Assembly: GCF_054482525.1 (NCBI RefSeq)
Contig: NZ_JBTHVG010000008.1
Length of the DNA: 5,891 bases
Origin: a plasmid
Direction: 5' to 3' (one strand)
The notes below the pieces were generated by a model. It searched no databases, had not been told where the DNA came from, and worked only from the letters and a program-made list of their open reading frames with translations. Shown here piece after piece: positions 967-4,721 of this stretch; positions within the stretch are counted from its first letter, which is position 1, and each line of letters opens with the position of its first letter. The translations under genes were made by a program, and so were the position numbers.

Positions 967-988
967 ACTGATGGGCTTTCCTGCTTGA

Positions 989-1873
989 TTATCCGAAGAG
1001 CAATCCCCAAACACTTTTAGCTACAGAAACAATGGCTTTCTTGGCGACTTTAGCCACTGACGCTATTGGTTTAGGTAGTACGGTGTCTATTATATCATCA
1101 ATAGCTCTATCTACGGTGTCTGCGAACCCGTCCTTTGCCGTTTCTACAATTTCTTTTGTTTTTATTTCGTCTTTTACTTGATGCACCACTCCGCTCTGTG
1201 CTTCCTTTGGGAGCGATCTTACTATTGCCTCCACTAACCTTGAAATGTTATAACCTTCATTCGCAGATACAGATATAACGGGATGTTTGGTAAAACCGAA
1301 TCGTTCTATTAAGTATTCTTCCTTTTTTCTAATATTTATTTGTTGTGAGGGTGATGGTTGGTGTTTTTCTTCATCCCATTCGCGGAATGGCTCAATCTTG
1401 TCGACTTGGTTTAAAACAAACAACACTTTTTCATCACCACCAACTGGTTTTAAAACATTTTTATAAAAGTGCTCATCAGCTGAAAATGCTCGATCATCAC
1501 CTTTAACAACCCAAAGCACCAGATCTAATTCTGGGAGAAGATTTTTATACAACTCTTCATATTCTATATCTTTAGCTTCATTTTCACCTACACCTGGTAT
1601 ATCTATTATTTTAATTGTTCTATCACCAAATGAAATTATTAATTCCTGAACCTTTCTCGTGCATGCTTCTACATCACTCACTGCACATACATTACCTTTA
1701 AAGATAGAATTACATAGGCTGGATTTACCAGCGCCGGTTTTACCCATAATCCCTATTACTGGTTCGTAATTAATAACATTTCTAATTTTGTTATAGACAG
1801 ACTTGCGAATCTCTTTAGGTAGAACATCCACAGCTTCTTTGATTAATTTTATACCTTGCGTATTGTTTTCCAT
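989..1873 (-). CDS. P-loop GTPase of the YfjP/YkfA/YeeP (MMR_HSR1-like) family with C-terminal amphipathic tail, 294 aa from the MENNTQ start
   Basis: The track ORF is 989..1960 on the minus strand. I prefer the ATG at 1873 (MENNTQGIK...): it has a GAGGA about 11 nt upstream and avoids overlap with the upstream gene, which ends at 1909. Motifs read in the translation: G1 GIMGKTGAGKSS, G3 DIPG, G4 NQVD, G5 SVSA. Conserved blocks ELDLVLW, DEHFY and QPSPSQQ resemble the E. coli CP4-prophage GTPases YkfA/YfjP/YeeP as I recall them. The C-terminus (PKPIASVAKVAKKAIVSVAKSVWGLLFG) looks amphipathic. Confidence 0.8.
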   Translation of the reverse strand: MENNTQGIKLIKEAVDVLPKEIRKSVYNKIRNVINYEPVIGIMGKTGAGKSSLCNSIFKGNVCAVSDVEACTRKVQELIISFGDRTIKIIDIPGVGENEAKDIEYEELYKNLLPELDLVLWVVKGDDRAFSADEHFYKNVLKPVGGDEKVLFVLNQVDKIEPFREWDEEKHQPSPSQQINIRKKEEYLIERFGFTKHPVISVSANEGYNISRLVEAIVRSLPKEAQSGVVHQVKDEIKTKEIVETAKDGFADTVDRAIDDIIDTVLPKPIASVAKVAKKAIVSVAKSVWGLLFG

Positions 1874-1908
1874 AGTTACTATTTTCCTCATTTTGTTGTT
1901 CATATGAA

Positions 1909-2343
1909 TTAACGGAAGCTTGTTTTTCTTTCTTCTTTTTCTTCCCCGCATACAGAACATTTGTAATGGCGATAGGTATCAGAACTCCCACTAAGATACC
2001 AATTGTGTCTTTTACCATGAACTCGCTCTGTAAAACATCTCACGCATCTTTCTTTCACATTGCAATAATCATCGACTGCAATTTCAACAAATCTTTCATG
2101 CCTTTCGCCTTCTTGTTCAGCGCCACAGTCGATACACTTTTTTACAGTTGTGCACTTGAAATCGTATTTATAACTTTCCTCTCCGTATTTATGCTGTTCT
2201 TTTTGTATAGTGCGATTGCAGTCAGGGCATAGTTTAGAATATTTACAAGTCTCACCATCAATAAGCTTATAGTTTCCTCCGTGTATACCTACCCCACACT
2301 TAGCCTTGATTGCTGCATTTTTTATGCTATCCCAAAAGCCCAT
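1909..2343 (-). CDS. Cysteine-rich small protein (144 aa) with three tandem CX5CX2C motifs plus a terminal CX2C; putative multi-zinc-ribbon protein
   Basis: ATG at 2343 (minus strand) is preceded by GGGAGA at about 7 nt spacing. The translation has 12 Cys arranged as CKYSKLCPDC, CTTVKKCIDC, CNVKERCVRC and CSVC, spaced about 30 aa apart. It ends 35 nt before the GTPase start, so the two are probably co-transcribed. I recognise no family. Confidence 0.7.
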   Translation of the reverse strand: MGFWDSIKNAAIKAKCGVGIHGGNYKLIDGETCKYSKLCPDCNRTIQKEQHKYGEESYKYDFKCTTVKKCIDCGAEQEGERHERFVEIAVDDYCNVKERCVRCFTERVHGKRHNWYLSGSSDTYRHYKCSVCGEEKEERKTSFR

Positions 2344-2389
2344 GGAAAAATCTCCCTACGATTAGTTGATATAAGTTGAACAATTCATC

Positions 2390-2440
2390 GACATGATTAT
2401 ACACGTATAGTGTGTGGATATATAAAAATGAGTATGGATT
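2390..2440 (-). promoter_or_regulatory. Candidate sigma70 promoter for the Cys-rich/GTPase gene pair (perfect -10 TATAAT on the minus strand at 2396..2401)
   Basis: The minus strand reads ...acgtgTATAATcatgtcg... about 50 nt upstream of the 2343 start codon. The -35 region is AT-rich and weak (TATATA-like). This is an inferred position within a 227-bp AT-rich intergenic gap (2344..2570). Confidence 0.3.
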
Positions 2441-2570
2441 TATGCTCTGTATAATGTTTTTGTTATGTTAAATATAGCGCTGAAAAAGTGGGGGCACTGG
2501 ATAAACTTCGTGTTTTTCCCGCAAAGATAGTATTGGAAAGTCATTGTCTAATTCATCCAAGATAAATATT

Positions 2571-3383
2571 TTACGAATTTGTGAGTTTGCTTGAGATTTT
2601 TATATATTCAGCCTTTATTAACTCATTGCCATATTTTTTCTCGAGTCTTTTAACAATGAAATGACCTCGAGCCATATCTTGATAATAGTCGGTAAACATT
2701 GTGTTTAATGTGGCTCCAGTTAGTGCTCCAATAACGGGAACGACTTGAGCTGCCATTTTTTCCGTAATAACTATACCAAATCTTGTTGCAACTTTTTCTA
2801 TTAACGAAGCTAACCATTTTCCTGTTTGTACTGAAGATGCGTTTTTGACAGCAATGTTAGAAATTTCTTTGGATAAATCTTGTACGATCTCGGCAGTCAA
2901 ACTTCTTGTTGCATAGTATGCAGTATTAGCTGCATCATCGTCATCAGATGGTCCTCCCAAGGAAAACACCTCTAAGCAGGCCAGTTTGGTATCAATATTA
3001 TCTAGCTCAAAACCTTCACTTCTTGCTATGTCAGCAATTGAACGAAGCATAATTGTCGTTGAAACCGGTAACTCAATTGCTAATGCAGAAAAGCCAAAAG
3101 CGCCACCAATGGCTCCAGATACGGCCGCAAAGAATTTATTTGTCTTAGTTGATGCTATTCGGTTAGGTTCATTGTCTAGACTCCATAAGGCCGCATCAGC
3201 AGCTTTGTGGAGCGATTTTTCTACTAGACTATAAATTTGCTCTTCTGCCCCTTTGGGAAGTTTACTCATTAAGTAATCTATTGGGGTTCCAACTAATTGG
3301 GTTAATGTTTCAGTAATTGTATCTTGTTCTAATAATTCTACGGCCCTTTCTAAAGCCCGCAGATCTCCTTCTTCAAGATGCAT
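2571..3383 (-). CDS. EcsC-family-like protein (putative), 270 aa
   Basis: Long minus-strand ORF. Its ATG at 3383 is preceded by AAAGGA at about 9 nt. It has Gly/Ala-rich hydrophobic segments (AAVSGAIGGAFGFSALAIELPVSTTIMLRSIADIARSEGF and VVPVIGALTGATLNTMFTDYY) that I associate with EcsC-family proteins. That assignment is from memory and unverified. Confidence 0.6.
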   Translation of the reverse strand: MHLEEGDLRALERAVELLEQDTITETLTQLVGTPIDYLMSKLPKGAEEQIYSLVEKSLHKAADAALWSLDNEPNRIASTKTNKFFAAVSGAIGGAFGFSALAIELPVSTTIMLRSIADIARSEGFELDNIDTKLACLEVFSLGGPSDDDDAANTAYYATRSLTAEIVQDLSKEISNIAVKNASSVQTGKWLASLIEKVATRFGIVITEKMAAQVVPVIGALTGATLNTMFTDYYQDMARGHFIVKRLEKKYGNELIKAEYIKISSKLTNS

Positions 3384-3536
3384 ATAATGAATCCTTTATG
3401 AATCAATCGATAGTCTACTTTTGTAAGTGATTCGTCTTGGGAGCTTACCTTGAGCGAGTTCAGTGATTCAATAGGCGAGATGCCGACATCATTGTTGTCT
3501 GTGAAGCAGGAGTGATGAAAAGATCAAAGGATCCTC

Positions 3537-3565
3537 TTGTGATCCTTTTTTTCTGCGCGTAATCT
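3537..3565 (+). promoter_or_regulatory. RNAII (primer) promoter: -35 TTGTGA (3537..3542), 17-bp spacer, -10 TAATCT (3560..3565)
   Basis: Positional and sequence equivalent of the pBR322/pMB1 RNAII promoter (TTGAGA - 17 bp - TAATCT). The transcription start is predicted at G3573. Confidence 0.7.
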
Positions 3566-3574
3566 GCTGCCTGT

Positions 3575-3682
3575 AAACAAAAAAACCACCGCTACCAACG
3601 GTGGTTTGTTTGCCGGATCAAGAGCTACCAACTCTTTTTCCGAAGGTAACTGGCTTGGTGGAGCACAGATACCAAATACTGT
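3575..3682 (-). ncRNA. RNAI antisense copy-number control RNA (about 108 nt)
   Basis: The minus strand beginning at 3682 reads acagtatttggtatctg..., the RNAI 5' end. It is complementary to the 5' end of RNAII. Its promoter (-35 TTGAAG, -10 CTACACT) lies at 3689..3718 on the minus strand. Confidence 0.85.
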
Positions 3683-3688
3683 CCTTCT

Positions 3689-3718
3689 AGTGTAGCCGCA
3701 GTTAGGCCACCACTTCAA
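3689..3718 (-). promoter_or_regulatory. RNAI promoter (-35 TTGAAG, -10 CTACACT on minus strand)
   Basis: The reverse complement of 3689..3718 reads ttgaagtggtggcctaactgcggctacact, matching the pBR322 RNAI promoter apart from one base in the spacer. Confidence 0.65.
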
Positions 3719-4119
3719 GAACTCTTAATATCTCAATCCACCTTGTCCAGTTACCAGTGGCTGCTGCCAGTGGCGCTTTGTCGTGTCTTACCGGGTTGGA
3801 CTCAAGACGATAGTTACCGGATAAGGCGCAGCGGTCGGGCTGAACGGGGGGTTCGTGCACACAGCCCAGCTTGGAGCGAACGACCTACACCGGGCCGAGA
3901 TACCAACAGCGTGAGCTATGAGAAAGCGCCACGCTTCCCGAAGGGAGAAAGGCGGACAGGTATCCGGTAAACGGCAGGGTCGGAACAGGAGAGCGCACGA
4001 GGGAGCCACCAGGGGGAAACGCCTGGTATCTTTATAGTCCTGTCGGGTTTCGCCACCTCTGACTTGAGCGTCGATTTTTGTGATGCTCGTCAGGGGGGCG
4101 GAGCCTATGGAAAAACGCC

Positions 4120-4140
4120 AGCGGCGCGGCCTTTCGTTGC
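4120..4140 (+). other. ColE1-type origin of replication (RNAII-to-DNA transition)
   Basis: The sequence aaaaacgccagcggcgcggcctttcgttgcc corresponds to the pBR322 ori switch region (aaaaacgccagcaacgcggcctttttacgg). Confidence 0.65.
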
Positions 4141-4369
4141 CCTTTGCCTTTTTGCTCACATGTTCTTTCCGGCCTTATCCCCTGATTCTGTGGATAACCG
4201 TATTACCGCCTTTGAGTGAGCCGGCACCGCTCGCCGCAGCCGAACGACCGAGCGTAGCGAGTCAGTGAGCGAGGAAGCGGAAGAGCGCCGGAACGTGCAT
4301 TTTCTCCTTACGCATCTGTGCGGCATTTCACACCGCATATAGCGCTCTTTTCTTACAATCTGCACTGAT

Positions 4370-4440
4370 GCCGCATGGTTAAGCCAGTATACACTCCGCT
4401 ATCGCTACGTGACTGGGTCATGGCTGCGCCCCGACACCCG
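4370..4440 (-). other. oriT / bom (basis of mobility) with nic region near 4381..4385
   Basis: The reverse complement of 4376..4440 reads cgggtgtcggggcgcagccatgacccagtcacgtagcgatagcggagtgtatactggcttaacc, the pBR322 bom sequence, which contains the nick site in the TGGCTTA context. It lies between the origin and rom, as in pBR322. Confidence 0.65.
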
Positions 4441-4529
4441 CTAAAACCTGCTGACGCGCCCTGACGGGCTTGTCTGCTCCCGACATCCGCTCACAGGCAA
4501 GCTGTGACCGTCTCCGGGAGCTACATGTG

Positions 4530-4721
4530 TCAGAGGTTTTCACCGTCATCCCCGAAGCGTGAGAGGCAGCTGCGGTAAAGCTCATCGGCGTGCTCGTGAA
4601 GCGATTCACAGATGTCTGCCTGTTCATCTGCGTCCAGTTCGTTGAGCTTCTCCAGCAGCGTTAATGTCTGGCTTCTGATAAAGCGGGCCATGTTAAGGGC
4701 GGTTTTTTCCTGTTTAGTCAC
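4530..4721 (-). CDS. rom: Rom/Rop, RNA-one modulator (63 aa)
   Basis: The translation MTKQEKTALNMARFIRSQTLTLLEKLNELDADEQADICESLHEHADELYRSCLSRFGDDGENL differs from pBR322 Rop, as I recall it, at only two residues. It has a GTG start with GGAGG upstream and is convergent with RNAII, as in pBR322. Confidence 0.9.
   Translation of the reverse strand: MTKQEKTALNMARFIRSQTLTLLEKLNELDADEQADICESLHEHADELYRSCLSRFGDDGENL

Follow-up and report, generated by a model that had tools for sequence, protein, structure and literature searches.

Does a short non-coding interval between an accessory gene and the replication primer promoter of a small plasmid act as a control region, through which expression of the gene could be coupled to copy number? 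This question, raised by a first-pass annotation, was addressed for the interval between an EcsC-family gene and the RNAII promoter in a DNA stretch of 5,891 bp (the window). The window corresponds to the complete, circular Klebsiella pneumoniae plasmid pMV-v4-SK2-O-b (NZ_CP085865.1) in reverse-complemented and rotated form, and near-identical plasmids of 5.88-5.89 kb occur in E. coli, Salmonella, and Klebsiella. It is a natural, mobilizable ColE1-like plasmid that was already sequenced and present in RefSeq.

The replicon showed the organization of ColE1-like plasmids, in which an antisense RNAI of approximately 100 nt with three stem-loops overlaps the 5' end of the primer transcript, a P2 promoter is located upstream of and opposite to RNAI, and a Rop/Rom gene is found downstream of the origin; all three elements were identified (Table 1). 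RNAI is transcribed toward the interval and has its own terminator, an 11-bp stem followed by a T7 run, at its end. Since the 3' end of RNAI is at 3577, the RNAII start was placed near g3573. Counting 555 bp from g3573 leads to approximately 4128, inside an origin-like sequence (GGAAAAACGCCAGCGGCGCGGCC), and the primer of ColE1-like plasmids starts about 555 bp before the origin (PMC11012335). The RNAII promoter (TTGTGA-17-TAATCT; Table 1) matched, column by column, a colicin ColE1-type plasmid over the stretch TTGAGA...TAATCT...GCAAACAAAAAAACC, from which its -35 hexamer differs as TTGTGA versus TTGAGA. We take TTGAGA and TAATCT to be the ColE1 boxes. The P2 boxes are reported to be highly conserved in the ColE1-like family (PMC5935869). 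With a PWM score of 9.07, the RNAII promoter was, in a tie, the second-best sigma-70 site in 3340-3740. RefSeq also lists a 52-aa 'replication initiation protein' (WP_071529495.1; 3702-3860, minus strand) inside the RNAII primer region. This entry, in a replicon that needs no Rep protein, is probably a spurious ORF call that was propagated across ColE1-like records.

The divergent geometry described earlier was confirmed. The EcsC start (3383, minus strand) and the RNAII promoter (plus strand) point away from each other, TTGTGA begins exactly at the reported position 3537, and the distance, previously given as about 150 bp, is 153 bp from start codon to -35 hexamer.

Table 1. Coordinates of features in the EcsC-RNAII interval and in the remainder of the window (promoters are given as -35 hexamer, spacer length, and -10 hexamer).
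Feature	Position	Strand	Evidence and remarks
GTPase gene, low GC	989..1873	minus	ORF and annotation
Cys-rich ORF (144 aa), low GC	1909..2343	minus	ORF and annotation
EcsC-family gene, 270 aa	2571..3383	minus	ORF; RefSeq CDS WP_000549944.1; Pfam PF12787 at 1.3e-31
AT-rich predicted EcsC 5' leader with Shine-Dalgarno	3384..3434	minus	29% GC; travels only with EcsC
Lineage-restricted segment	3435..3515		46-48% GC; blastn versus pKMi029_5/pKFu015_4; only in this plasmid lineage
Best candidate EcsC promoter, TTGAAT-18-TAAGCT	3471..3466 (-35), 3447..3442 (-10)	minus	PWM 9.07, tied with RNAII promoter
Start of family-wide ColE1 core: A-rich RNAII promoter flank (-57 to -39) and left hairpin arm	3516..3534	plus	
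Perfect 8-bp hairpin (AAAGGATC / GATCCTTT)	3526-3533 / 3541-3548		Terminator scan of both strands and inverted repeat; overlaps RNAII -35
RNAII (primer) promoter, TTGTGA-17-TAATCT	3537-3542 (-35), 3560-3565 (-10), start ~g3573	plus	Alignment, PWM, RNAI 3' end
RNAI antisense regulator	3577-3680	minus	Rfam RF00106, 68.6 bits versus gathering score 47, E = 1.7e-11, full length 1-102
RNAI promoter (RNAIp), TTGAAG-18-TACACT	3718..3689	minus	PWM 11.24, rank 1 in 3340-3740
rop	4530..4721	minus	ORF; annotated Rop family protein WP_000165993.1
MobC/MbeA-B-D genes	across window ends		ORFs and RefSeq annotation

Comparison with related plasmids resolved the interval into three layers. The layer next to EcsC (3384-3434) is missing from the EcsC-less plasmids pKMi029_5 and pKFu015_4, whose homology to the window in blastn searches begins at 3435. 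From 3435 across the window ends to 968, their backbone is 93-96% identical to that of the window, and their slot 969-3434 holds other, plus-strand cargo that consists of a helix-turn-helix (HTH) protein and a small ORF. As their homology extends from 3435 despite the different cargo, the second layer (3435-3515) stays with the replicon. When 3384-3600 was used as a query, 3,069 plasmids matched, only 19 of which covered most of the query. Outside 22 close relatives, the left edge of homology fell mostly, in a spread sample of 60 listed records, at query positions 133-147 (window 3516-3530; -57 to -43 relative to the RNAII start), which defines the onset of the third layer. The full interval is rare and was found in 22 of 72,556 PLSDB plasmids and in 31 of 5,426 E. 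coli genomes.

From 3516 onward, the window resembles colicin plasmids of the ColE1/pMB1 type, with which it has in common the sequence GAAAAGATCAAAGGATC..TTGNGATCCTTTTTTT..TAATCT, the hairpin and T-run that overlap the -35 hexamer, the geometry of RNAI and RNAII, and rop. In the colicin plasmids, however, a lysis gene reads toward the promoter and the core starts right at its stop codon, whereas EcsC reads away from the promoter and approximately 130 bp of lineage-specific DNA separate it from the core. The possibility that 3414-3515 preserves the 3' end of a plus-strand gene, closed by a double stop at the core in the manner of the colicin lysis gene, was rejected, since its 33-codon frame matched only the same 22 plasmids (tblastn, E up to 10).

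GC content changes from 29% in 3384-3434 to 46% in 3435-3534, and is likewise 46% in the RNAI/RNAII overlap. The compositional switch that had been noted in the interval is real and its boundary does lie inside; its position was refined to approximately 3435, one third of the way in, rather than the right edge. The GC step coincides with a recombination breakpoint near 3435. Xer sites were not found at both ends of the segment exchanged there (969-3434). At its left end, backbone homology runs out at 966-968, next to a cer-like site (938-966); near 3435, no match to the XerD arm was found with up to 2 mismatches in the window, and none with up to 1 mismatch in relatives.

The site at 938-966, directly after the mob genes, is a bona fide cer-like site (GGTACGTACAA-ACTGTTG-TTATGTTAAAT). 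A second Xer/cer-type site, in direct orientation at 2445-2473, combines an exact XerD arm with a degenerate XerC arm and has a stretch of 15 identical nt in common with the first site (TTGTTATGTTAAATA). The two sites bracket the two-gene module of GTPase and Cys-rich ORF, so that the second site encloses only the GTPase sub-module of the exchanged segment. Metagenome contig L007 carries mob, EcsC, and ori and lacks 967-2576. Based on the bracketing Xer sites and on this contig, the module looks like an Xer-site-flanked insertion. Upstream of the Cys-rich ORF (2396-2426, minus strand), the arrangements TATATA-17-TATAAT and TTTATA-19-TATAAT, each with a perfect TATAAT -10 hexamer, suggest that the Cys-rich/GTPase pair is a transcription unit apart from EcsC.

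A second EcsC-bearing lineage allowed rates of change to be compared along the interval. A contiguous block corresponding to 2577-4721 (EcsC, interval, ori, and rop) occurs, at approximately 89-93% identity, in plasmids of 3.27-3.28 kb, in one CMY-2 derivative, and in several metagenome contigs. For cryptic 3.27-kb plasmids such as pWP4-W18-ESBL-09_6 (NZ_AP022075.1) and for the CMY-2 derivative pEcoUTI1c, identity over this block is approximately 89%. The 3.27-kb plasmids match the window in the EcsC start codon, the Shine-Dalgarno sequence, the candidate promoter, and the spacing up to the RNAII promoter; unlike the window, they carry neither mob genes nor the GTPase module. The earlier designation of EcsC as cargo is therefore too simple, since in these plasmids EcsC, interval, ori, and rop move as one block.

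Between the window and the 3.27-kb lineage, identity was 92% for EcsC, 79% for the leader (3384-3434), 86% for the middle segment (3435-3507), 97% for the RNAII promoter region, 70% for the RNAI/RNAII overlap with its loop region, and 99% for the rest of RNAII. Outside the family-wide core, the interval (79-86%) thus changes faster than its flanks, EcsC and the RNAII promoter. The leader drifts at about the neutral rate (EcsC dS 0.22) and the middle segment only slightly more slowly, as a spacer with little embedded information would. The sequences available for such footprinting (PLSDB, 5,426 E. coli genomes, and one metagenome scan) represented 3 independent lineages of the interval, which gives the comparison low power and is too few for statistics.

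Two further mosaic features were observed in the replicon. The RNAI/RNAII overlap (3573-3680) was 70% identical to that of records L002, L007, L010, and L011, with 97-99% identity in the flanking promoter and the rest of RNAII, and the loops differ between the EcsC lineages (ACCACCGCTACCAACGGTGG versus ACCGCCTGGGGAGGCGG). This pattern looks like a swap, or a rapid divergence, of incompatibility specificity within a conserved replicon. DNA identity of rop (4530-4721) was 51-66% to the 3.27-kb-type records L002 and L011 and 93% to contig L007; the origin beside it was 97-99% identical in all three, which marks a further mosaic boundary.

The EcsC reading frame itself appears to be in use. Downstream of an in-frame stop, the first start codon is the one at 3383, which RefSeq also gives as the start of WP_000549944.1 and which the second EcsC lineage keeps; a Shine-Dalgarno sequence, AAGGA (3396..3392), is located 8 nt upstream of it. 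Comparison with the allele of the 3.27-kb plasmids gave a dN/dS of 0.21 at a dS of 0.22, which indicates that the gene is under purifying selection, maintained, and presumably expressed. Residues 85-103 form a hydrophobic, glycine-rich segment (Kyte-Doolittle 1.74) that is compatible with membrane association. The nearest EcsC homologue beyond these plasmids, on a 241-kb Raoultella plasmid, is 55% identical and too distant for comparison of upstream DNA. A literature search found no paper on EcsC on ColE1 plasmids; a paper on CMY-2/ColE1 (PMC6061673) deals with another plasmid, pSC137.

Homology of EcsC with the 3.27-kb plasmids breaks off in its last codons (window 2571-2576 / L002 2199-2232). 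The protein ends in ...KLTNS (270 aa) in the window versus ...KLTNQNQRKHLNSN in the 3.27-kb plasmids (279 aa, 9 aa longer), and its original C-terminus was apparently replaced when the GTPase module was inserted. In searches of defence-system models, EcsC matched the PADLOC candidate single-gene system PDC-S29 (2.7e-10), the GTPase (MMR_HSR1/dynamin-like) gave a weak match to LeoA/LeoBC models, and the 144-aa Cys-rich ORF matched nothing in Pfam or PADLOC. The three low-GC genes at 989-3383 (minus strand) may be defence-related.

Two minus-strand terminator-like hairpins, at 3607..3583 and 3548..3526, stand between EcsC and RNAIp. They separate the gene from RNAIp, and as no other minus-strand promoter is known upstream, EcsC most probably has its promoter inside the interval. 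The first-pass annotation had found no convincing -35/-10 pair by eye, and a consensus scan at 9 or more matches out of 12 likewise found none in the interval. As a negative result this has little weight, since the same threshold misses RNAIp (8/12) and the RNAII promoter (7/12), and it was replaced by a PWM scan calibrated on these two promoters. The best minus-strand sigma-70 candidate inside the interval was TTGAAT-18-TAAGCT (3471..3442), with a predicted start at approximately A3435 and a predicted leader of about 52 nt. The p3272 (3.27-kb) lineage retains it as TTGAAT-18-TAAGAT, the top minus-strand site there (PWM 10.66); the EcsC-less lineage has TAAAAT and CAAACT instead, so that neither hexamer is intact. 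A score of 9.07 was reached by 446 of 2000 dinucleotide shuffles of the interval (22%). The earlier statement that the interval must contain the cargo promoter is most probably correct, with TTGAAT-18-TAAGCT as a best guess that is not proven.

Two other origins of EcsC transcripts were considered. A site at 3519..3491 (minus strand), TTCATC-17-AACAAT, has its -35 hexamer 17 bp from that of RNAII and would form a truly overlapping divergent pair in which polymerases compete for shared A-rich upstream DNA. It ranked second on the minus strand of the interval in all 3 lineages (PWM 7.02) with invariant hexamers, and it overlaps the conserved flank of the ColE1 family. We nevertheless regard it as quite improbable: its score is lower and far from significant when compared with shuffles, its -10 hexamer lacks the first T, and its conservation in the EcsC-less lineage is equally explained by constraint on the RNAII promoter flank. 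Alternatively, EcsC might have no promoter of its own in the interval and be expressed at a low level by read-through from the strong RNAIp, past the RNAI terminator and the 3548..3526 hairpin, in which case its expression would passively follow RNAI synthesis. RNAI is indeed on the EcsC strand with its 3' end approximately 190 bp upstream of the EcsC start codon, the interval contains no statistically convincing promoter, and the minus-strand T-run of the second hairpin is poor (GATCTTTTCA). Such read-through is unlikely in view of the two successive terminator-like structures in its path and of the presence of a candidate promoter that scores as high as the RNAII promoter and is kept where EcsC is present.

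The hairpin at 3526-3548 consists of 8 pairs (3 G-C) and a 7-nt loop, is followed by TTTTTTT on the plus strand and by the weaker T-run named above on the minus strand, and folds at -21.4 kcal/mol (z = -2.56). With its G-C-containing stem-loop and T-run it has the features of an intrinsic terminator, is terminator-like in both directions, and is kept across the ColE1 family. In related plasmids it would end the gene that reads toward the origin and so, presumably, insulate the primer promoter. The strongest sigma-70-like site on the plasmid, TTGTGA-18-TATATT (2579-2608, plus strand; 9/12, PWM 11.36), falls within the 3' end of the EcsC coding sequence and faces the interval, antisense to the gene. 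It may be an AT-rich chance match; an antisense transcript from it would be stopped by the 3526-3548 hairpin before the RNAII promoter.

The description of the interval as a control region was not borne out. The search for conserved inverted repeats or operators was negative, and the polymerase footprints predicted for the two promoters (approximately 3415-3490 and 3518-3593) are separate. In the search for a shared operator, the only perfect inverted repeat in the interval was the family-wide hairpin, and the repeat search found no tandem repeats there. Candidate regulatory repeats (AGTGATTC, present twice; TAATGAATC/GATTCAATA; TGAATC/GATTCA) were rejected since they are not kept in the p3272 lineage. 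Inspection of the sequence by eye for LexA boxes, CRP sites, and sigma-28 and sigma-54 motifs gave no match worth reporting, the RefSeq annotation of the plasmid contains no regulator gene, and Rfam searches returned no family other than RNAI. The leader has no stable structure and folds worse than shuffled sequences (z = +0.95), and with RNAI as the sole Rfam match, a structured leader or riboswitch was rejected. Of the two opposite promoters that bidirectional control would involve, the RNAII promoter is secure and that of EcsC is predicted, at a score that 22% of shuffles equal; neither a shared operator nor overlapping footprints connect them.

Taken together, the interval is probably an ordinary intergenic spacer of mosaic make-up in a natural ColE1-like plasmid and not a dedicated control element. 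In this arrangement, 3384-3434 would act as an unstructured, AT-rich leader of about 52 nt with a ribosome-binding site. TTGAAT-18-TAAGCT (3471..3442) would probably be a weak, constitutive sigma-70 promoter of EcsC that starts transcription near 3435 and is located inside an 80-bp lineage-specific stretch, and from 3516 the conserved flank of the RNAII promoter, including hairpin and T-run, would follow. The two promoters would stand back to back, with starts approximately 138 bp apart. As neither their predicted footprints overlap nor a shared operator was found, any cross-talk would only be generic and supercoiling-mediated, as between any divergent neighbours on a small plasmid.

Coupling of cargo expression to copy number, as suggested by the first-pass annotation, is unsupported. 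It would mean that transcription from the EcsC promoter alters firing of the RNAII promoter or R-loop formation and that copy number tracks cargo expression, via upstream negative supercoils (twin-domain model), possibly combined with co-translational membrane insertion of EcsC, or via local recruitment of RNA polymerase. Consistent with such a mechanism, the predicted starts are close and back to back, the hydrophobic segment of EcsC fits membrane association, and the divergent placement is kept in all EcsC-bearing relatives found, which comprise three plasmid architectures and two RNAI specificity types; this uniform position beside the RNAII promoter could reflect more than shared ancestry. 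However, the candidate promoter is weak (7/12 hexamer match), so that little supercoiling is expected from it, the footprints are separate with no shared operator found, and the interval is poorly conserved. In pKMi029_5 and pKFu015_4, with their 93-96% identical backbone, the cargo is a different, co-directional one and the candidate hexamers are lost: these natural replicons work without EcsC and with both hexamers mutated, and another works with EcsC truncated by the CMY-2 insertion. We consider functional coupling improbable.

The nearest documented precedent for the coupling idea is pSW200, in which 15-bp repeats in non-coding DNA of a ColE1-type plasmid bind RNAP/sigma-70, modulate the replication promoters, and raise the activity of RNAIp and the RNAII promoter by approximately 30% (PMC3628316). 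In pSW200, unlike in the interval, the repeats are tandem and number 41, their action depends on neither distance nor orientation, and their loss left copy number unchanged (PMC3628316). Neighbouring divergent genes on ColE1 vectors also influence each other (PMC11951768), and the window has the same layout of two divergent units, here within approximately 140 bp on a small circular ColE1 replicon. The published direction of these effects is inconsistent, and the gene-syntax studies measured reporter genes with strong promoters rather than a primer promoter or copy number (PMC11951768). Foreign transcription that is co-directional with RNAII may also take the place of a deleted RNAII promoter (PMC4938672). 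With these precedents, a weak effect is conceivable. In its strongest form, the idea would be that the placement of EcsC was selected, its transcription supplying negative supercoils to the primer promoter and to the region of the R-loop, maybe with a membrane anchor, as a cis-acting tuner of copy number; we judge this very improbable. On pBR322, membrane insertion of the nascent TetA protein, encoded by tetA, acts as an anchor that affects supercoiling. A similar anchoring by EcsC is imaginable, as speculation from this analogy.

If coupling did occur, an accessory gene could set plasmid copy number by its position alone, which would be relevant to plasmid evolution and vector design. As it stands, the interval is an unremarkable junction, of a well-known kind, between an accessory gene and a ColE1 primer promoter. 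Its layers place the end of the cargo slot of one ColE1-like lineage at approximately 3435 and the start of the conserved replicon approximately 57 bp upstream of the primer start, two boundaries that are useful for annotating and engineering such plasmids.
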